Positions 7,280-16,587 of a stretch of DNA of 64,000 nucleotides are shown here, one piece after another. Under the pieces are notes generated by a model. That model saw only the letters and a program-made list of their open reading frames with translations, was not told the DNA's origin and did not search any database. Source of the stretch: Dictyostelium discoideum (taxonomy: Eukaryota); contig CM000152.2 of NCBI GenBank assembly GCA_000004695.1, positions 5,056,001 through 5,120,000 of the forward strand, in the 5' to 3' direction. A program made the position numbers and the translations under genes. Within the stretch, counting starts at the first letter, position 1. Each line of letters starts with the position of its first letter.

Positions 7280-8227
7280 CTTTCATACTATTCTCTAGAA
7301 TCTCTAGATTCTCTTGGTTTTCTTTTTCTATTTTCTTTTTATATTCTTCTGGTAAATAAACATTTTCTCGTCCCGAAGAGAAGACAGATTTAGGTGGTGA
7401 ATTATAATTTGATTTTGAAAAGTAATTTTTTTTTTTTGTAATAAAGACATGATAAAATAATTTGTCTTAAAGGAAAAAAAATAATTATATTAAATTATAA
7501 AATTAATAATTTTATAGATTACAATCTTTGTTTATATAAATAAAAAAAAAAAAAAAAAAGTCTGGAAACTAAAAAAAAAAACCTACATATTTTATTTATT
7601 TGAATAGTGTTATATACTAAAGTGTATTGAAAAAAAACTATTAAAAAAAAAAAAAATCACTTTTATGGACCTTTTTAGGTGTTAGACTAATTTAAAAAAA
7701 AAAAAAAAAAAAAATCACTTTTATTCTGACACCCTTTTTTTAGGTGCTAATTTTCCTAAAAAGGAACGTAAATTTTTTTTTTTTTTTCCTTTTTTTTTAT
7801 CAATCAAATTTCTAAATTGGAAACTATAAGATAAATCTAATAAAAATTTTAAATTTTTTTTATACTATAAATCTCCCCATAAATCATCCATCAACATGCA
7901 AATTATTTAAAAATCCTGCTCAAATTGAAAAAAAAAAAAATAAAAATAAAATAAAATAAAATAAAATAAAATAAAATAAAATGAAATAAATTTACAGATG
8001 TAATAGTTTATAGATTTTTGTTTTTCTTTTTCTTTTTCTTTTTTTTTTTTCATTTTTTTTTTTTTAATTTTGGTAATATAACTTCTCCTCTAATATTTGA
8101 TATACCATCTGTGGTTATTGATATTTTAATAATACACATATTTCAGCCTTTCTATTACAAATATAACCAGCAGGTAAATTATTAAAAATAAATAGTTTTA
8201 TCATCTAAAGTTGTTATTAAATTGGCA

Positions 8228-8285
<58 letters not shown>

Positions 8286-8450
8286 AAGAAAGTGTAATAG
8301 CCAGGATGAAATAAAAAATCTCAAATATTTTCAAAGGAAATAAATACCAAGTTAATATTTTATAAAACACTATTAAATGGGACCAATAGTTATAAGAAGT
8401 TGATTTTTATGTGTGAAAATATTGTGGCAAATAAAAATAAAATGAATTCA

Positions 8451-8500
8451 GCCATAGTAGTATAGTGGGAATATATTTTTCTCGTATAAATTTATTGTGA
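8451..8500 (+). pseudogene. Truncated, diverged copy of the tRNA gene 5' half (A-box region only)
   Basis: gccatagtagtatagtgggaatatatttttctcgtataaatttattg aligns to the 5' part of the intact tRNA at 14744 (gccatagtagtctagtggtaagacatttctctcgtataaaattatacag) with an internal deletion. There is no T-arm or 3' acceptor. Confidence 0.55.
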
Positions 8501-8541
8501 ATAATTAATTACAAAAAAAATGAAAATTTTTACAAATTCGA

Positions 8542-8597
8542 GCCATAGTAGTCTAGTGATAAGACGTTTCTCTCTTATAAAATTATACAGGGAAGAA
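8542..8597 (+). pseudogene. Second truncated copy of the tRNA 5' half, fused to the repeat-module leader
   Basis: gccatagtagtctagtgataagacgtttctctcttataaaattatacagggaagaa is ~90% identical to 14744-14800 and keeps the same upstream context (aaaatgaaaatttttacaaattcgag). After gaagaa it diverges into tgattaattacaaaac instead of the B-box/T-arm. Confidence 0.6.
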
Positions 8598-8625
8598 TGA
8601 TTAATTACAAAACATTTTTTTTGTT

Positions 8626-8869
8626 TTGTTTTTTTTTTTTTTGAAATGGATAACGTCTCCTTGTGATGCAAGATCTCATTTTTTTAATTACAAAACTTTT
8701 TTTTTTTTAATCGTACAACGCAATTATTTTTATTACAAAACTTTTTTTTTTGAATTGGATAACCCAATTAATTTAAATTTTAATTACAAACTTATTTTGG
8801 ATTGGATAACGCAATTATTAGTTATGGTTTTTTATTTTTTTTTTTTGTTGCTCCTTGACTTTAATTACA

Positions 8870-8904
<35 letters not shown>

Positions 8905-9186
8905 AATTGGATAACGCAATTATTAGTTGCTTCTCCTTGAGATGCTAGATCTCATTTTATTTGTAGTTTTTTACAGGGTCTCTAAAAGAGGGGTTAGTTT
9001 ACTTTTTTTTTTTTTTTTTTTTTTTTTATTTTAATTACAAAACTTTTTTTTTGAATTGGATAACGCAATTATTATTTGCTTCTCCTTGAGATGCTAGATC
9101 TCATTTTATTTTATTTTTTTTTTTTTTTTTTACAGGGTCTCTAAAAGAGGGGTTAGTTTACTTTTTTTTTTTTTTTTTTTTTTTGT
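8626..9186. repeat. Tandem array (3-4 copies) of a ~150-bp module, probably retroelement terminal (C-module-like) sequence
   Basis: Imperfect direct repeats, each ending in poly(T): (t)n-gaattggataacgcaattatta..ttgcttctccttgagatgctagatctcatttt..acagggtctctaaaagaggggttagtttac-(t)n. Copies lie near 8640, 8745, 8900 and 9050, and the two copies near 8900-9000 and 9050-9155 are nearly identical. The array sits between the truncated tRNA copies and a TRE 5' fragment. Confidence 0.6.
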
Positions 9187-9477
9187 TTCGAATTTTGAAT
9201 TGTATTATTACTTTTGATTAAAACATCTTTTTTGTCCAAACTTTTTTCTAAATCTTTTTTTATTTTATCGTCTGGTTCGTGATTGATGTTTATGACGTAT
9301 TTGAATTGTTTTTTTTTTAATTGAGTTTTATCCACAATTTCGCTTATTTTTTGTAGGCATTTGTGTTGCTTAATATTTGTGGTGTTGTTTGTGATTTTCA
9401 TTTTATTTTCTTTCTATTTTTTATATTTTTCTTTAAAAAGTTAAAAATCTGGAAATTTTCTGATTAACTTGGGTTCC

Positions 9478-9480
<3 letters not shown>
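9187..9480 (-). mobile_element. 5'-terminal fragment (5' UTR plus first ~70 codons of ORF1) of a second TRE-type retrotransposon copy
   Basis: Minus-strand sequence cctgggaacccaagttaatcagaaaatttccagatttttaac...atgaaaatcacaaacaacaccac is near-identical to the 5' end of the full copy at 14384-14100. ORF 9153..9401(-) begins MKITNNTTNIKQHKCLQKISEIVDKTQLKKKQFKYVININHEPDDKIKKDLEKSLDKKDVLIKSNNT, the same as ORF1 of the full copy, and then breaks off into poly(A) plus repeat-module sequence. Confidence 0.75.
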
Positions 9481-9536
<56 letters not shown>

Positions 9537-12500
9537 TTATTTATAGAAAGTACTGAGTGAATTATTGTATTTTTTGAGATGTTTAGGAAGTTCTATTGCG
9601 TGAAGAGGTGAGTTCCATTGTCTGCTAAATTGTAATAGCTTTAGCGAGATTAGTGAGTCTAATTTATTTTGTTCTTCTGGCCGTTGCTTTGATTTGATTC
9701 TTAATGTTTTGTTTATAACCGCTTGTGTCCTGTCCCATGCAGCTCTTTGTGTTTTAATTAGTTCACGTATGACTTGTTGTCTGTGAATTATTATTTCTTT
9801 TTCATCGTGAATGAGTTTATTTCTTTTGTGCCAGATTTTATCGAATATAATAGCTATTAAATTGGCTACTAGTGCAATTTGTAGATGGTTTAAAATCTTC
9901 ACATTCCAGGTGTGAGTGGTGTGTCCACACTTAGTTAGGGTGTAGTTGAAGATTTCTTGTGTGTTTTTGATGTGGGCTTTGCAGTTGAAGAATATATGTT
10001 CTGAGGTCTCATCTTCCCCACACTGTTGGCATGGCATGTTGTATATTTTTGGTAGTGCTTTCAGTGTGTATCTCCATAATAGATCTCTACCTTTCATGTT
10101 TATTATTTTTTTGATTTCTTTAAATGGAAGGTGTTTGCTATTAATTTTGGTCATTATTTCTTTTTGGCCAGGAGTTGGTATGAATTTGTTGTGTTCAGGA
10201 GATTGAGTTGTCATCATATCTTCGTATATTTTTTTTAATTTTGGGAGGTGTTCGTAGTGTGTTTGTTTATTTTGTGGAGTTTTTAATTGGGTCCATGCTT
10301 GCTTGCATTGCCAGTGTAGTTGTAGTTGATTTTGTTTTGTTGTTGTTTTGTTGTTGTTGTTGTTTTTGAGTTCCTCTTCCCACAGTTTTATATATGAACT
10401 AGGAGTGTTACTTACTCTTTGGTGGAGGTATCTTTCGAATAACCATGCTTTCTGTGCTAGTTCTCTTGTCTTCAGGTTCCATAAGTTTAGGCCACCATTG
10501 ATATAGTTGTTTTGTCTTCTTTGTAGTGAAAGAGAGTTTTTAGATTTTGTGTTGAAAACGAATTTTACGATGTTATTTTCAATACTATTGTGTTGTGGTG
10601 TGGTGTTGATGTAAGTGTGGAACGTTAACTGAGATAGTGCATATGTTTTTGCCATTATGAGTCTGCCCATATAGGTTGATGAAGTTGAGTTCCATGTTAC
10701 TAGTTTAGCTCTGATGTTGTCTGAGATTGTATTGATTTTGGATTTGATACCCTTATTGTTGAAGTCAAAGCCGAGGTACCTTTCGTTTGATTTTATGACG
10801 GTGTATAGCGTTCTGGTGTTCCATTTGAAAGTGATACACGAGCATTTGGTTTGGTTTATTTTTGCGCTGGTTGCTTGGCAAAACTTCTTGATCCATTCAT
10901 TCATGAGGAAATGGTCCATAAAGTTGTATGCTATTGTTGCTGTATCATCGGCGAACTGTAGTATTTTAATGGTTTCTTTGGTTACACCATTGATGCAGCG
11001 GTCATTTATTATAGTAGTTGCCATGCATTCAACCACTAATGCGAAGATAGTGGGAGAGATAGGATCACCTTGTTTGGTTCCTCTTTTTGATGTAAAGCTT
11101 TTAGATAATGAGTTATTGATGTACACTGATGTTTCTGATTCATTGAGTAAGTTCATTATTGTGAGGACCATTTTGAGTGGTAGTTTTAGATGTGCAAGAG
11201 TACGTAGAATGGCGTTATGTGAGATTGAATCGAATGCTTTTTCAAAATCATAAAATGTTATGATTGGTTCCATATCCTCTTTTGTGTTAATCTCTCGTTT
11301 TATTATTTCTATTGTTGAGTTTAAGGTGATGATGTTATCGTGCAGTAGTCTTCTTGGTACGAATCCAGTTTGGAATGGTGAGATTATTTTGTTTAAGAAC
11401 TTCAGGATCCTATTGTTGATTATTTTCGAATAGATTTTGTAATCGACATTTAGAAGTGTTATTGGTCTATAATTATCCAGGTTGTTTGGGTCTCCTTTGT
11501 TTTTATATATAGTAATCAATATCCCTTGTTTGAAGTCCTTTGGGATTGTTGTGTTCCAGAAGTGATTGTATAGTTTTGATATTATTGGTAGAATTTCATT
11601 AATGTGGTTTTTGTAAAATGTTGGAAGGAGTCCATCTTTACCAGGTGCTTTTCCTTCTTGTATTTTTTCAATGCCTAGTCTGATTTCATATCCTTCTATT
11701 GGTTGATTAATTTCGTCCAATATCTTTTGATCAATCCTTTTATTGAATGTTTTTAGGAGTTCGTGGTGAGTGTCTTCGTTGCATTCTCTCTTCTGGTACA
11801 GGTTCTCGTAATATCTTCTTGCTACTTCGAGGATATCCTCGTGTTTTGTTACCAAACAATTGTTGCTTGGATCTAGAATTTGAGGGATTTCATTTGTCTT
11901 TCTTTGGACTTTTAACCTTCTGGTTAAGTATTTTGATGGTGTTTCTTTGTTGTTGATGTGGGTGTTGGTTTGGTTTGCTTGTTTTATTCTTACTTGTTCC
12001 TTTAGAATATTGTTGATCTCTTCTTTAAGGAAGATTGCTCTTGAATCTTTGGCTGTTTCGAGTTTTTCTGCGAGTTCTTTTAGTTTGTTTTTGGTTTTAT
12101 TGCTTTCTCTAATTTCTATATTAATTGACAGTTTCTTTATTTCATCTTTTAGTTTCAACCATTGTTCGCAAATGTTTAATTTGTACCATTTGCTGGTGTT
12201 CTCTTCGAATTTTTTATTGTAGTATTTAATTGTTTTATTAATTTTGAGGCTGGTTGAATTCATTTTGAGAGTTTCTAGGTTTTGTCTCCATAGTCTTTCT
12301 CCTTTCTTTTGTTGCTCGTATTCTGGTATTTTTAATTCAATGATTACCATGTTGTGATCAGATTTTAATTTGATTTCCTTAGTAGTAACTATTGGGTTTA
12401 GATGGAGTATCTTCTTTGAGACAAAGACCCTATCGATGGTTGATTTGTTTCTTGGAAATGTGATTCCATTCTTAATTTCTGTAAATTCGAATTCGTCGAA

Positions 12501-12758
12501 GATTGTTTTAATATATTTGTTAAGGTTATTATCCACTGAACAGTCTACATTGAAGTCTCCGGTTATAATATCGCTGTGTAGTATTTCTTCTGTGAGATTT
12601 TCCTTATACCATTCATGTCTTTCGTTTGACTTTGCTGGGGCATAAATGGTTGTGCATTTGATCTGTGTTTTTGCAATCATCCATTCGGAAGATATAATTC
12701 TTTCGTTTATTGTTTTTGTTGTTGTTTTTATTTGGGTGTTGATGATGATTTGTGACAC
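9537..12758 (-). CDS. Retrotransposon ORF2: apurinic-type endonuclease plus reverse transcriptase polyprotein (1073 aa from the first Met)
   Basis: EEP/APE motifs (ITGDFNVD...SDHNMVIIEL), RT motifs (LLNVDYKIYSKII; FYDFEKAFDSISH; KILQFADDTATIA), and a C-terminal CQQCGEDETSEHIFFNCKAH..HKRNKLIHDE zinc-knuckle-like region. Confidence 0.9.
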   Translation of the reverse strand: MSQIIINTQIKTTTKTINERIISSEWMIAKTQIKCTTIYAPAKSNERHEWYKENLTEEILHSDIITGDFNVDCSVDNNLNKYIKTIFDEFEFTEIKNGITFPRNKSTIDRVFVSKKILHLNPIVTTKEIKLKSDHNMVIIELKIPEYEQQKKGERLWRQNLETLKMNSTSLKINKTIKYYNKKFEENTSKWYKLNICEQWLKLKDEIKKLSINIEIRESNKTKNKLKELAEKLETAKDSRAIFLKEEINNILKEQVRIKQANQTNTHINNKETPSKYLTRRLKVQRKTNEIPQILDPSNNCLVTKHEDILEVARRYYENLYQKRECNEDTHHELLKTFNKRIDQKILDEINQPIEGYEIRLGIEKIQEGKAPGKDGLLPTFYKNHINEILPIISKLYNHFWNTTIPKDFKQGILITIYKNKGDPNNLDNYRPITLLNVDYKIYSKIINNRILKFLNKIISPFQTGFVPRRLLHDNIITLNSTIEIIKREINTKEDMEPIITFYDFEKAFDSISHNAILRTLAHLKLPLKMVLTIMNLLNESETSVYINNSLSKSFTSKRGTKQGDPISPTIFALVVECMATTIINDRCINGVTKETIKILQFADDTATIAYNFMDHFLMNEWIKKFCQATSAKINQTKCSCITFKWNTRTLYTVIKSNERYLGFDFNNKGIKSKINTISDNIRAKLVTWNSTSSTYMGRLIMAKTYALSQLTFHTYINTTPQHNSIENNIVKFVFNTKSKNSLSLQRRQNNYINGGLNLWNLKTRELAQKAWLFERYLHQRVSNTPSSYIKLWEEELKNNNNNKTTTKQNQLQLHWQCKQAWTQLKTPQNKQTHYEHLPKLKKIYEDMMTTQSPEHNKFIPTPGQKEIMTKINSKHLPFKEIKKIINMKGRDLLWRYTLKALPKIYNMPCQQCGEDETSEHIFFNCKAHIKNTQEIFNYTLTKCGHTTHTWNVKILNHLQIALVANLIAIIFDKIWHKRNKLIHDEKEIIIHRQQVIRELIKTQRAAWDRTQAVINKTLRIKSKQRPEEQNKLDSLISLKLLQFSRQWNSPLHAIELPKHLKKYNNSLSTFYK

Positions 12759-12970
12759 CCCTTGTCCTGTTTTATCAATTGGTGCGTGGTGTGTTATTTT
12801 GTTTTTATATTGTTGATTTATTGAGTAAATTTTATTTGTTTTTATATTTGTTTCAGTTAGAAGTGCTGCGTCCAGCTTGTTGTTGTCTAATACGGTGTTT
12901 ATTATGCTGGCAGATTGGATGGTGTTGGATCCTTGGACGTTCCAAACACCTATTCTTATTGTGTTTTTCT

Positions 12971-14305
12971 TTATAGTTTTATTTGGGGTAGATTTTTATC
13001 TACCTTTTGAAGTTTCTGGTTTATTTTGTCTTCTAACTGATCTTTACTTTGTTCGTTGTGTTGTTGGTCTTGTGTGTTTGTGGGGTTTTTTGATTTACTG
13101 ATTTGTTTTAGAATTTCCTTGTTGAAGTTGTCTATATCTTCATCCATTTTTGTTTTTATGCTTTTTTGTCCATATTCACCCAATTTTGGTTTGACTGGTG
13201 TTTTGTTGGTCCTGTTTGTTTTGTCTTGTTGTTTGTTTTTTGGTGTGTTTAACAATTTACTTGGTGAATCGATAATTTTCGATGGTGTACCATAGGTTGG
13301 GCTGAAACTCATGATATGTTTTATTGGAGAGGAGAAGAACCATTGATTTGAAGGGATTGAAAGTGGGAATTCTATTTTTCTTATTGCATCAGTGTTTGGG
13401 CTGGTGAAGTCGAAGATATCATTTACCTCTCTAAGTTTTTCTTCCGTTGTTAGTCTCTTTGTTTCGCCGTGTTGTTTTATTGGTGTATTGTATGGAGATG
13501 GTGGTTCAATAGGTTTTTCTGATTTTGTTTTAATTTCTTGATTTTTTATCGATTGGGTATTGATCTCATTCTCTATTCTTGTTAGTTCATCTACGTTTTC
13601 TAGTGATGCATCTATTACCTTTTGAGCTGTATCATCTAGGGCCATAAATGTTTTATCATTAGATGAGGAGGTGATTGGTGGGATAATGATTGTTCTTTTT
13701 CCTTGTTTTGGTATTTGTTCTGATGTAGATTTTGGTTGTTGTTCATCTGATTGTTTTTTATTTTTGTTTTCTTCTTGATTTTCTGGTAATGAGGTTTGAT
13801 CTCTCCATCCTTTGTTGGAGTGACCAATTAATGTTAGATTGTCTAGTTCAATGATAGTGTCATATTCTTCTACGACTCTTTTCACTGTTTTGATAATTAG
13901 AGTTTCGCCTTTAATTTCAGATTTAATTAGTTTACATCCTTCATTTTCTATTACCCATTCTATTTCTGTGAGTGATTTATACCAATCGAAATCCGTATAC
14001 ATATTTTTTGGTCTTAGAGTGGTTATAAATTGTCCTTTTAATTCTGCATCGAACATATTTACAAAATAGATTACTGTACTAATACTGTCTGTGAGAATTT
14101 TGAATGTATTATTACTTTTGATTAAAACATCTTTTTTGTCCAAACTTTTTTCTAAATCTTTTTTTATTTTATCGTCTGGTTCGTGATTGATGTTTATGAC
14201 GTATTTGAATTGTTTTTTTTTTAATTGAGTTTTATCCACAATTTCGCTTATTTTTTGTAGGCATTTGTGTTGCTTAATATTTGTGGTGTTGTTTGTGATT
14301 TTCAT
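12971..14305 (-). CDS. Retrotransposon ORF1 (444 aa, basic/K-rich, probably a nucleic-acid-binding protein)
   Basis: Intact ORF directly upstream of ORF2 on the same strand. Its N-terminus is duplicated in the neighbouring partial copy, which is typical LINE ORF1 placement. Confidence 0.8.
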   Translation of the reverse strand: MKITNNTTNIKQHKCLQKISEIVDKTQLKKKQFKYVININHEPDDKIKKDLEKSLDKKDVLIKSNNTFKILTDSISTVIYFVNMFDAELKGQFITTLRPKNMYTDFDWYKSLTEIEWVIENEGCKLIKSEIKGETLIIKTVKRVVEEYDTIIELDNLTLIGHSNKGWRDQTSLPENQEENKNKKQSDEQQPKSTSEQIPKQGKRTIIIPPITSSSNDKTFMALDDTAQKVIDASLENVDELTRIENEINTQSIKNQEIKTKSEKPIEPPSPYNTPIKQHGETKRLTTEEKLREVNDIFDFTSPNTDAIRKIEFPLSIPSNQWFFSSPIKHIMSFSPTYGTPSKIIDSPSKLLNTPKNKQQDKTNRTNKTPVKPKLGEYGQKSIKTKMDEDIDNFNKEILKQISKSKNPTNTQDQQHNEQSKDQLEDKINQKLQKVDKNLPQIKL

Positions 14306-14383
14306 TTTATTTTCTTTCTATTTTTTATATTTTTCTTTAAAAAGTTAAAAATCTGGAAATTTTCTGATTAACTTGGTTCCCAT

Positions 14384-14426
<43 letters not shown>

Positions 14427-14427
<1 letters not shown>

Positions 14428-14697
14428 TCTTTTTTATATGAAAAATGAAATAATCAAAAAAAGAGATTGTTGTTGTTGTTTGTTTTTTTTCGATCTGATT
14501 ATTTTTTGCTTTTTTTTGAAAATTTTGCTACGCAAAATTCTCAAAACGAAACAAATAATAAATTACAATAAAGTAAAAAGATGGCTTTTTAAGATAGTTT
14601 ATTTATTTATTTATTTGTTTTTTAAGTCTTTTTTATATGAAAAATGAAATAATCAAAAAAAGAGATTGTTGTTGTTGTTTGTTTTTTTTCGATCTCT
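14427..14697. repeat. Local tandem duplication: a ~75-bp segment repeated 196 bp apart
   Basis: aagtcttttttatatgaaaaatgaaataatcaaaaaaagagattgttgttgttgtttgttttttttcgatct occurs at 14427-14500 and again at 14623-14697, between the retrotransposon 5' end and the tRNA gene. Confidence 0.8.
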
Positions 14698-14743
14698 TAA
14701 ATTACAAAACAAGCATAAAAAATGAAAATTTTTACAAATTAGA

Positions 14744-14829
14744 GCCATAGTAGTCTAGTGGTAAGACATTTCTCTCGTATAAAATTATACAGCGAAGAAG
14801 GATCCCGTGTTCGATTCACGGCTTTGGCA
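14744..14829 (+). tRNA. tRNA gene, probably carrying a 15-nt intron. Anticodon loop CUCGUA gives anticodon CGU (tRNA-Thr?), so the isotype is tentative.
   Basis: Acceptor GCCATAG pairs with CTTTGGC (one T.T mismatch at 5:68). D-arm is GTCT-AGTGGTA-AGAC (A-box TAGTCTAGTGG). T-arm is CCGTG-TTCGATT-CACGG (B-box GTTCGATTC). Discriminator A at 14829 is followed by T6 (a pol III terminator). Anticodon stem TTTCT/AGAAG closes only if 14780-14794 (taaaattatacagcg) is removed as a 37/38 intron. Confidence 0.7.
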
Positions 14830-15586: not shown

Positions 15587-16046
15587 ATGATTGAATGTAC
15601 AGATAAGATAAAAAAAAGGAATAATAATAATAATAATAATAATAATAGTAGTAGTAATAATATAGATAATAAAAGTGAATATGATATAAATTCAAAAGAA
15701 AATTATAATGATATTGATGATGATAATAAAAATAATAATAAAATCTCAAAACCAATTATATTAAAGAAGAAAAGACATCCATTAATAACCACATTAAGAT
15801 ATGTAGCGATATTTTTAATATTTTTCTTATTAACAAGTGAATATCTTGTACAATTTGTACATGTTGAAGCAGTACCATTAAATAAGGGTAAATTTAGTCA
15901 TATAAATTCAAATGTATCAGATCCAAGGGATTACAATGCCCTTAGAATTCAATACTCTACAAATTATCACGAAATTACAAGTGATCATTTATTTAATATG
16001 TTAAATAATAGATCAAGGGATATAACTGTTTCATCTTCAAATGATT

Positions 16047-16102
<56 letters not shown>

Positions 16103-16587
16103 TATGATGAAAATATCATTAATAATGGTATTGACAATAATAAATTAACAAGTGAAGAAAAAGAAAAAGAAAAAGAAAAAGAAAAAGAAAAAGAAAAAGA
16201 AAAAGAAAAAGAAATAAAAGAGAAAAATTTAAAAATTTTTAGAGAATACAATTTAACTGAAGATTATTATACAAATATATTAAACTCAAATACAACTTAC
16301 ATTTTATTTGTATGTAAAAAAAAATATTAAATATTATTATTATTATTAATAATAATAATAATAATCATAAATAAAAAATTAAAAATTAAATATTAATAAT
16401 ATCTAATAATTTTATATTATTTCTATTTTTAGCTTTATCACATGGATTGTCCATTTAGTCAAAGACTATTACCAATTATAGAGACATTATCAAGAACTTA
16501 TCCAAATATTATATTTTTTCAATCAAGAGGATTTACGTATGTTTTTTTTTTTTTTCTTATTATTTATAGTCTTATTATTTTTATAAG

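Follow-up and report, generated by a model that had tools for sequence, protein, structure and literature searches.

The locus upstream of the tRNA-Thr(CGU) gene on Dictyostelium discoideum chromosome 3 is best read, with a probability of roughly 0.93, as a stack of TRE5-A (DRE) insertions produced by repeated target-primed reverse transcription (TPRT) at one site. At least six TRE5-A insertions have occurred at a single spot approximately 47 bp upstream of this gene. Five are older 3′ ends, each 5′-truncated and A-tailed, that together occupy positions 8614 to 9030, and the newest is a full-length TRE5-A.1 whose ORFs are intact. The stack is the product of serial target-primed insertion, wherein the youngest TRE5-A lies closest to the tRNA. 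A preliminary description of this DNA had proposed repeated integration at a tRNA landmark, which is borne out by the series of TRE5-A elements bracketed by a 13-mer; the features that it noted are real, although their boundaries were misplaced. The features of the locus are given below, numbered by position in the window, the whole 64,000-nucleotide stretch of DNA that was analysed.

8450–8504, plus strand: U1, the oldest and most decayed partial tRNA-Thr; 5′ part with an A box (TAGTATAGTGG) and no B box
8505–8600, plus strand: U2, the second tandem unit; a 13-mer-like sequence (TTAATTACAAAA), upstream context and tRNA positions 1–60 (8541–8600)
8601–8613: distal copy of the target-site duplication (TSD), TTAATTACAAAAC, the original target sequence
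8614–8683, minus strand: F1, the oldest TRE5-A remnant, from the C-module alignment; TSD copy next to it at 8684–8696
8697–8728, minus strand: F2, (A)12 tail and about 20 nt of C-module 3′ end; TSD copy at 8729–8741
8742–8779, minus strand: F3, (A)10 tail and about 25 nt of C-module 3′ end
8780–8791: TSD copy after F3, TTAATTACAAAC
8792–8860, minus strand: F4, short tail and a rearranged C-module fragment of about 60 nt; TSD copy at 8861–8873
8874–9030, minus strand: F5, (A)30 tail (8874–8903) and a nearly complete C-module of a variant subfamily; TSD copy at 9031–9043
9044–14697, minus strand: full-length TRE5-A.1 of 5.65 kb, with the layout A-A′-B-ORF1-ORF2-B-C-(A)9
9044–9052, minus strand: (A)9 tail of TRE5-A.1
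9053–9189, minus strand: C-module of TRE5-A.1, 137 bp
9190–9480, minus strand: 3′ B-module of TRE5-A.1, 291 bp
9482–9542, minus strand: internal A-run of TRE5-A.1 after ORF2, which reads as a T-run
9537–12758, minus strand: ORF2, from the ORF list, with an RVT_1 domain
12971–14305, minus strand: ORF1, from the ORF list, identical to DDB_G0281943
14095–14385, minus strand: 5′ B-module of TRE5-A.1
14386–14425, minus strand: A-run of TRE5-A.1
14426–14697, minus strand: 1.4 copies of the 199-bp A-module of TRE5-A.1
14698–14710: tRNA-proximal TSD copy, TAAATTACAAAAC, with one substitution
14744–14829, plus strand: intact, intron-containing tRNA-Thr(CGU), the actual integration landmark

From its distal 13-mer onward, the array alternates between element and 13-mer and closes with a 13-mer, 33 bp and the tRNA gene, with the oldest element farthest from the tRNA and the newest nearest to it. 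Every one of the six elements is flanked by the same 13-bp TSD, TTAATTACAAAAC. When at most one mismatch is allowed, this sequence occurs eight times compared with 2.2 expected, and seven of the eight occurrences are at the locus. The locus bears the hallmarks of TPRT, namely a 13-bp TSD at all six elements, tails of 7 to 30 A residues and truncation points that are all different. Published TSDs of TRE5-A are 10 to 16 bp long (PMC9012585).

All that is left in the five old stubs is an A-tail and 20 to 130 nt from the 3′ C-module. F1 combines an A-rich tail (8614–8642) with a 41-nt C-module 3′ fragment carrying a 15-nt internal deletion, and F5 is truncated at the B/C boundary. F4 contains an internal A-rich insertion that the stack model leaves without explanation. 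Three motifs, GAATTGGATAACGCAATTATTA (four matches), CTCCTTGAGATGCTAGATCTCATTTT (three) and ACAGGGTCTCTAAAAGAGGGGTTAGTTTAC (two), none of which is expected by chance, mark the module copies, and outside positions 8650 to 9161 they have no matches elsewhere in the window. The repeated modules had been taken for retroelement termini, and they can now be identified as the 3′-terminal C-module of TRE5-A. Of the earlier proposal that a module of about 150 bp is repeated three to four times, the period holds (149–159 bp), but only two copies are full (8904–9002 and 9053–9161); the remaining four are 20- to 60-bp fragments with just the module 3′ end. The rightmost module of the array is the C-module of the full TRE5-A.1 itself.

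Such repeats might also derive from a single unit of 13-mer, A-tail and C-module that was amplified across positions 8601 to 9043 by unequal crossing-over or slippage and subsequently decayed. The units do lie in tandem and have the 13-mer in common, a potential source of homology for recombination. Furthermore, the window contains 3.56 kb less than a second assembly, between two 979-bp direct repeats, indicating that recombination or collapse happens at this locus; the stack is six layers deep in the window and eight in the other assembly (GCA_054883475.1), whose additional 3.56 kb comprise a TRE5-A.2 and a 5′-truncated TRE5-A.1. However, the C-module alignment reveals that truncation point, tail length and filler bases differ unit by unit among F1 to F5. 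F5 is a different sequence variant from the full-length element next to it: its identity to the neighbouring C-module is 87%, whereas a copy elsewhere (L006, 3343–3423) matches it at 100% over 81 nt. In the second assembly, a variant 13-mer, GTTTTGTAATTTA, is limited to the two junctions nearest the tRNA and the older junctions carry ...TTAA, a pattern of TSD-variant inheritance that fits sequential layering in which the element closest to the tRNA is the youngest. The differing truncations, tails and fillers, the variant status of F5 and the layering of 13-mer variants together argue that F1 to F5 are independent insertion events. Moreover, de novo tandem formation by new insertion has been demonstrated experimentally (PMC5391098). 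Amplification of one unit is thus very improbable compared with serial insertion.

The adjacent TRE element of the preliminary description corresponds to the full-length element at 9044 to 14697, which, judged by its arrangement, is one TRE5-A.1 whose AB-ORF1/ORF2-BC order agrees with the literature. The published TRE5-A structure has an A-module of 200 bp, a B-module of 290 bp and a C-module of 134 to 137 bp (PMC3159450), and the family name given here comes from the match to this architecture and these lengths, not from a labelled consensus. The 5′ and 3′ B-modules are 99% identical (9190–9480 versus 14095–14382). Among TRE5 elements, a 3′ B-module is specific to TRE5-A and is lacking in TRE5-B and TRE5-C (PMC3159450). 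The parent element of the modules became recognizable only after comparison with other genomic copies. Nine other loci, found via ORF1, carry the A region, the B fragment (291 bp) and the C-module seen in the window, arranged in the same order, with B at both the 5′ and 3′ positions and C terminal. The same module order is present at loci L002 and L003, and the window element aligns end to end with L003 1805–7429. TRE5-A.2 keeps just the last 87 nt of C (PMC3159450), and short C copies at other loci span C positions 22 to 109.

This layout removes two components of the original annotation. What had been read as a 5′ TRE fragment capping the array (9190–9480) is the 3′ B-module inside one TRE5-A.1, and the supposed poly(A) of a separate full TRE copy (9482–9542) is the internal A-run that follows ORF2. 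ORF1 equals DDB_G0281943 and falls in a cluster with 16 further copies from D. discoideum, each of them annotated as “hypothetical protein.” ORF2 contains an RVT_1 domain at residues 423 to 664 (Pfam, E = 3e-33); the reverse transcriptase domain alone was detected, and an endonuclease domain gave no Pfam match in ORF2 at E ≤ 0.01. A candidate Cys/His motif, CQQCGEDETSEHIFFNC, is visible by eye near the C-terminus of the ORF2 translation. The ORF2 of TRE5-A is characterized by an APE-type endonuclease, a reverse transcriptase and a zinc finger. An identity as TRE3, TRE5-B or TRE5-C was considered because of an apparent 5′ UTR of about 80 bp and an element length of about 4.8 kb, and was ruled out once the A-module repeats and the 3′ B- and C-modules were recognized within the same 5.65-kb element. 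ORFs at 40 to 46 kb were also considered as a second retroelement and had no Pfam matches.

TRE5-A targeted the intact tRNA gene at 14744 and not the partial copies beyond the array. This gene is the sole Rfam match in the whole window at gathering thresholds. With its first base at 14697 and the tRNA +1 at 14744, TRE5-A.1 begins at −47 on the opposite strand, so that the two are arranged head-to-head with a gap of 46 bp. All 23 tRNA/TRE5-A pairs in the fetched loci are likewise head-to-head, with gaps of 39 to 61 bp, mostly 44 to 48 bp. TRE5-A is known to insert 47 ± 3 bp upstream of tRNA genes, with its 5′ end facing the tRNA 5′ end (PMC3159450, PMC5391098).

The anatomy of the locus and published knowledge of TRE5-A suggest how the stack may have grown. 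On each occasion, the TRE5-A machinery would be positioned by the Pol III factors that occupy the intact tRNA gene. The tRNA-sense strand would be nicked right after TTAATTACAAAAC, at about −34, and cDNA synthesis would be primed on the poly(A) tail of the element. The other strand would then be nicked 13 bp further out, at −47, and the 13-mer would be duplicated because the second nick lies 13 bp from the first; we infer both nick positions from the junctions. The next insertion would reuse the tRNA-proximal 13-mer, since this copy again occupies −47 to −34.

Two partial tRNA copies lie at the far end of the array, and they had correctly been recognized as 5′ portions of the gene at 14744. 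Self-BLAST of the window, whose first output was dominated by poly-T matches, aligns 8512–8601 with 14714–14803 at 92% identity over 90 bp, comprising 30 bp of upstream context and tRNA positions 1 to 60. Within U1, 8450–8495 is 87% identical to 14743–14788 over 46 bp. The first half does not join a T-run as had been stated; it is followed by TTAATTACAAAA and then by the upstream context of the second half.

A divergent D. discoideum strain (L026), in which orthologous sequence was located via a Na/H-exchanger gene, reveals the origin of these copies. A search with the neighbouring ORF (15587–16327) gave no homologues. The L026 locus carries U1, U2 and the tRNA in tandem, yields no matches to the A-, B- or C-module, and retains the 13-mer uninterrupted as TTAATTACCAAAC followed directly by AAGCAT, the same sequence that follows the 13-mer at 14711 in the window. 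Thus, TRE5-A is absent there while both halves are present. D. citrinum has only one tRNA and lacks both halves. It follows that the halves are older, decayed tandem duplicates of the upstream context and most of the tRNA, unrelated to retrotransposition; this duplication took place within the D. discoideum lineage, predates the first TRE5-A insertion and makes up the outer flank of the target site. In L026, U2 extends to about +75 with a mutated B box, from which it follows that the break at +60 in the window reflects a later deletion of 12 to 16 bp.

The same comparison bears on whether the duplicated halves or modules are an assembly artefact. The region is rich in A+T and homopolymers, and the window lacks the 3.56 kb noted above. 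However, the halves and all five small fragments recur base for base in an independent assembly (L003, 10980–11580), and the halves are also found, with substitutions, in the divergent strain. The suspicion that the half copies are assembly duplications is dispelled by these findings, and we give an artefact next to no weight.

It had also been proposed that template switching or 5′ transduction fused the halves with the modules, creating a composite and possibly transcribed unit; a SINE-like nature of such a unit was considered as well. As in tRNA-derived SINEs, a tRNA-like 5′ part does physically adjoin LINE-type 3′ ends. In SINEs, however, both parts share a strand, the tRNA head contains an A box and a B box, and the whole unit can move, whereas here the halves are on the plus strand and the modules on the minus strand, the B box is absent from the halves, and the tRNA parts are immobile flank at an empty site. 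No head with A and B boxes was found on the same strand, 5′ of a LINE tail and poly(A), and both halves occur at the empty site, from which a composite that is mobile or made by the retroelement should be missing. Template switching is contradicted by the halves at the empty L026 site. Their location beyond the poly(A) and TSD ends of the elements, not at element 5′ ends, does not fit 5′ transduction, and the lack of a poly(A) after them does not fit 3′ transduction. The Rfam tRNA model gave no match to the halves even at E ≤ 10 (8300–9300), where the only hits were three chance-level matches (Qrr, DnaX and Mnt IRES). T-runs come after the halves and would act as Pol III terminators. A chimeric transcript is thus without support in the sequence, given the opposite strands, the missing B box, the lack of an Rfam tRNA match and these T-runs, and a composite unit is extremely unlikely.

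The tandem tRNA unit and the 13-bp TSD have the same distal edge, down to the single base, an agreement that the stack model treats as a coincidence. Alternatively, the TRE5-A machinery itself could have made the halves by abortive integration, wherein staggered nicks at −47 and inside the tRNA were filled without cDNA. The outcome would be a clean duplication in tandem, equivalent to an exceptionally long TSD that encloses no insert. The shared boundary is found in both AX4 and L026, a partial tRNA-Val copy at L013 abuts the TSD of the oldest insertion, and partial 5′ tRNA tandem copies recur at genes occupied by TRE5-A (L004, L013 and L024). In opposition, the duplication is also present in the strain free of TRE, and the halves can thus be explained without an insertion; the TSD at L004 lies inside the 39-bp units rather than at a unit boundary; a first-strand nick within the tRNA gene is required, which is not a known TRE5-A site; and the sampled loci were all chosen for the presence of TRE5-A, which biases the association. 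Origin of the halves as a long TSD was rejected for its misfit in geometry and for their existence at the empty site, and abortive integration is rather improbable.

A broader proposal, that tandem partial duplications of the tRNA 5′ region and its upstream context recur among D. discoideum tRNA genes as a feature not described before, is unlikely, if a little less so. Examples are the Thr-CGU gene of the window, Val-CAC at L013, the 39-bp units at three Ser-GCU genes of L004 and fragments at L024, and in two cases the outer edge coincides with the inferred second-strand nick site of TRE5-A. Such duplications could arise by abortive TRE5-A integration or by slippage during replication along the borders of the Pol III pre-initiation complex.

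The stack of TRE5-A insertions is of a kind already known in D. discoideum, ordinary and described before. TRE-TRE tandems at previously occupied tRNA genes have been reported (PMC5391098), and TRE5-A tandems share with this locus the order A-B-ORF1-ORF2-B-C-(A)n, a 137-bp C-module, a 291-bp B-module, a 13-bp TSD, a 5′ end facing the tRNA 5′ end at −47, 5′-truncated copies with filler bases, and the placement of new copies between the tRNA and older ones (PMC3159450, PMC5391098, PMC9012585). Nothing essential differs, but the locus is unusually deep, with four layers cut to 20 to 60 nt. Clusters of Ty3 and Ty1 solo LTRs at yeast tRNA genes similarly reflect repeated integration defined by Pol III, with stacked upstream remnants. 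However, those are LTR elements inserted by integrase whose solo-LTR remnants result from LTR-LTR recombination, whereas the remnants here are 5′-truncated TPRT products with poly(A) tails.

The main value of these findings is a correct annotation: one intact, potentially active TRE5-A.1, five dead 3′ stubs and, adjacent to these, two fragments of tRNA pseudogenes, but no new composite element. The locus offers a clean natural case of a site-specific LINE-like element whose array grows layer by layer as its own target-site duplication is used again, and this array can be dated from the outside in. As the second assembly shows, such arrays vary by kilobases between assemblies or strains, which matters for the mapping of TRE5-A insertions and for users of the reference genome.

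ARAGORN and Rfam call only one tRNA gene in the window, tRNA-Thr(CGU) with an intron, on the + strand (14744–14829). The window also holds a large element, whose minus-strand ORF1 (12974–14305) shows full identity to DDB_G0281943 of D. discoideum AX4. Both ORFs of this element are intact, with ORF1 encoding 444 amino acids and ORF2 spanning 1073 codons that include an RVT_1 domain; an ORF near the element clusters with slu7 (DDB_G0281901), and these matches place the window on D. discoideum chromosome 3. Other genomic copies were fetched via ORF1 and then searched with pieces of the window. Among these copies, the C-module is always the terminal block, each element has two copies of the 291-bp stretch at 9190–9480 (one around the start of ORF1, the other separating ORF2 from the terminal block), and 14426–14697 corresponds to a 199-bp unit found in tandem arrays at the 5′ ends of elements. 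The layout of the window element is exactly that published for TRE5-A.1, AB-ORF1/ORF2-BC, with A of ~200 bp, B of 290 bp, and C of 134–137 bp; duplication of the B-module at 5′ and 3′ is found only in TRE5-A (PMC3159450). Judged by this agreement in module order and length, 9044–14697 appears to be a single full-length minus-strand TRE5-A.1. It can be aligned end to end with 1805–7429 of L003, the same locus in a second assembly. Shorter copies in the fetched loci, comprising B positions 49–269 and C positions 22–109, fit the description of TRE5-A.2, a form with a 72-bp BC deletion and only the final 87 nt of C (PMC3159450).

A preliminary description had read the left end of this element as the last module of an array, followed by a 5′ fragment of a TRE and the poly(A) of a full copy. 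These are instead the C-module of TRE5-A.1 itself, its 3′ B-module, and the A-run (9482–9542) that separates this B-module from ORF2. In the window element the promoter module (the 199-bp A-module) is present in 1.4 copies, whereas some TRE5-A copies in the long-read assembly have 8 to ~22 in tandem at their 5′ ends (L001 6225–7910, L006 3626–7905, and L007 6214–7905, all fetched loci).

The first base of TRE5-A.1 (14697) lies on the opposite strand at −47 from tRNA +1 (14744). Across the fetched loci, all 23 tRNA/TRE5-A pairs are head-to-head, with a gap of 39–61 bp, mostly 44–48; the published spacing is 47 ± 3 bp, with the element 5′ end toward the tRNA 5′ end (PMC3159450, PMC5391098). On either side of the element lie TTAATTACAAAAC (9031–9043) and TAAATTACAAAAC (14698–14710), a 13-bp target-site duplication (TSD) inside the literature range of 10–16 bp (PMC9012585). 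TTAATTACAAAAC is over-represented in the window, and seven of its eight occurrences are at the TRE5-A/tRNA-Thr locus.

To the left of TRE5-A.1 are five older A-tailed C-module remnants, with copies of the same 13-mer between them.

A-tailed C-module remnants, minus strand
8874–9030: F5
8792–8860: F4
8742–8779: F3
8697–8728: F2
8614–8683: F1

The earlier raw observation of tRNA-half matches and module motifs at this locus was largely correct, and the modules are indeed retroelement sequence, namely the TRE5-A C-module. The three module motifs are confined to 8650–9161 within the window, where none is expected by chance. A module repeated three to four times had been proposed; repeats are present, but only two are complete (8904–9002 and 9053–9161) and the others are short fragments. 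Inside F4, ...GGAGCAAC and AACTAATAATTG... are separated by (A)12T(A)6CCAT, a block that could represent two merged events or internal A-run expansion.

Read on the minus strand, all units end in ...GCGTTATCCAATTC(A)n followed by GTTTTGTAATTAA, and their start points vary. A common A-tailed end with a variable start and a TSD is the signature of 5′-truncated non-LTR insertions. We infer that the array was built by serial target-primed reverse transcription. A nick in the tRNA sense strand after the 13-mer would prime cDNA synthesis on the poly(A) tail, and a second nick 13 bp further out would duplicate the 13-mer, whose tRNA-proximal copy would then occupy the preferred position for the next insertion.

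Several features favour such separate insertions over the amplification of a single unit. The units all differ from one another in truncation point, tail, and filler bases, and F5, only 87% identical to its neighbour, matches a copy at a different locus with 100% identity over 81 nt. The mutated TSD GTTTTGTAATTTA is limited in the second assembly to the two tRNA-nearest junctions, and older junctions all read ...TTAA, as expected if new copies always enter beside the tRNA. Moreover, TRE-TRE tandems made by such insertion have been described and produced experimentally (PMC5391098).

This second D. discoideum assembly (GCA_054883475.1, CM142509.1) is 3,560 bp longer at the locus. The surplus consists of a TRE5-A.2 (L003 7473–9992) and a 5′-truncated TRE5-A.1 (L003 about 10015–10975), both with the 13-bp TSD, and a 979-bp ORF2-3′/B/C stretch present once in the window (9044–10022) occurs twice there (L003 6460–7438 and 10020–10998). 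The difference reflects either collapse in the window's assembly or removal by recombination between direct repeats.

Further left, 8512–8601 matches 14714–14803 with 92% identity over 90 bp, and a second, weaker match to the tRNA region spans 8450–8495. These two partial tRNA-Thr copies had been taken as tRNA halves fused to retroelement modules. Under the insertion model, sequence left of the outermost 13-mer (8601) would be the original upstream flank of the target, a prediction that was tested at orthologous loci recovered via the Na/H-exchanger gene 4.6 kb to the left. In a divergent D. discoideum strain, a search for A-, B-, and C-module matches found none, and the tRNA-Thr gene is preceded by both partial copies and an uninterrupted TTAATTACCAAAC-AAGCAT. 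This locus is the empty site, and the fusion is therefore contradicted. The second partial copy there extends to about +75, with a mutated B box (GTTAGATTCA), so the window break after GAAGAA reflects a later 12–16 bp deletion, not an integration breakpoint. At the D. citrinum locus, one tRNA but no halves and no TRE were found. Presence at the TRE-free site and absence in D. citrinum identify the halves as an old tandem duplication of the upstream context and most of the tRNA gene, which predates all TRE5-A insertions at the site.

Assembly duplication as the source of the halves was rejected because an independent assembly contains both with identical sequence. The halves were undetected by the Rfam tRNA model at E ≤ 10. 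Without a B box, and with T-runs following them, they lie on the other strand from the modules; the proposed chimeric transcript, template switching, and transduction find no sequence support. About 170 bp left of the first half, a pure (T)48 followed by (A)8 (8231–8278) could be what remains of a retroelement tail or just an ordinary Dictyostelium homopolymer.

The duplicated tRNA unit and the TSD share the same outer edge. Partial tRNA copies are also seen at other TRE5-A loci. At L013, a partial tRNA-Val(CAC) copy (10546–10670; −15 to +60, 91% identity) directly adjoins the TSD of the oldest TRE insertion there. A tiny C-module stub of its own, GTTATCCAATTC(A)8, lies ~41 bp upstream of it, so this copy may once have served as a functional target. 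L004 carries seven 39-bp tandem units, in which the initial ~18 nt of tRNA-Ser are joined to ~20 bp from upstream of the gene. Such units precede three tRNA-Ser(GCU) genes (9997–10285, 7560–7602, and 11776–11820), and a TRE5-A.2 with TSD GGTGTCATTGAAT is inserted inside the unit array. At L024 (13255–13300), the distal TSD of a TRE5-A.1 is immediately followed on its far side by the T-arm/B-box-like GTGAGTTCGATTCTCAG, which points the other way from the targeted tRNA-Val and may be what is left of a degenerate, divergent tRNA. In this small sample of loci selected for TRE5-A occupancy, the partial copies hint that partial duplications arise repeatedly upstream of tRNA genes. A mechanistic link between TRE5-A and the partial duplications is unlikely. 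The structure at the window locus is of a known type, and the locus lies in a sequenced reference genome.
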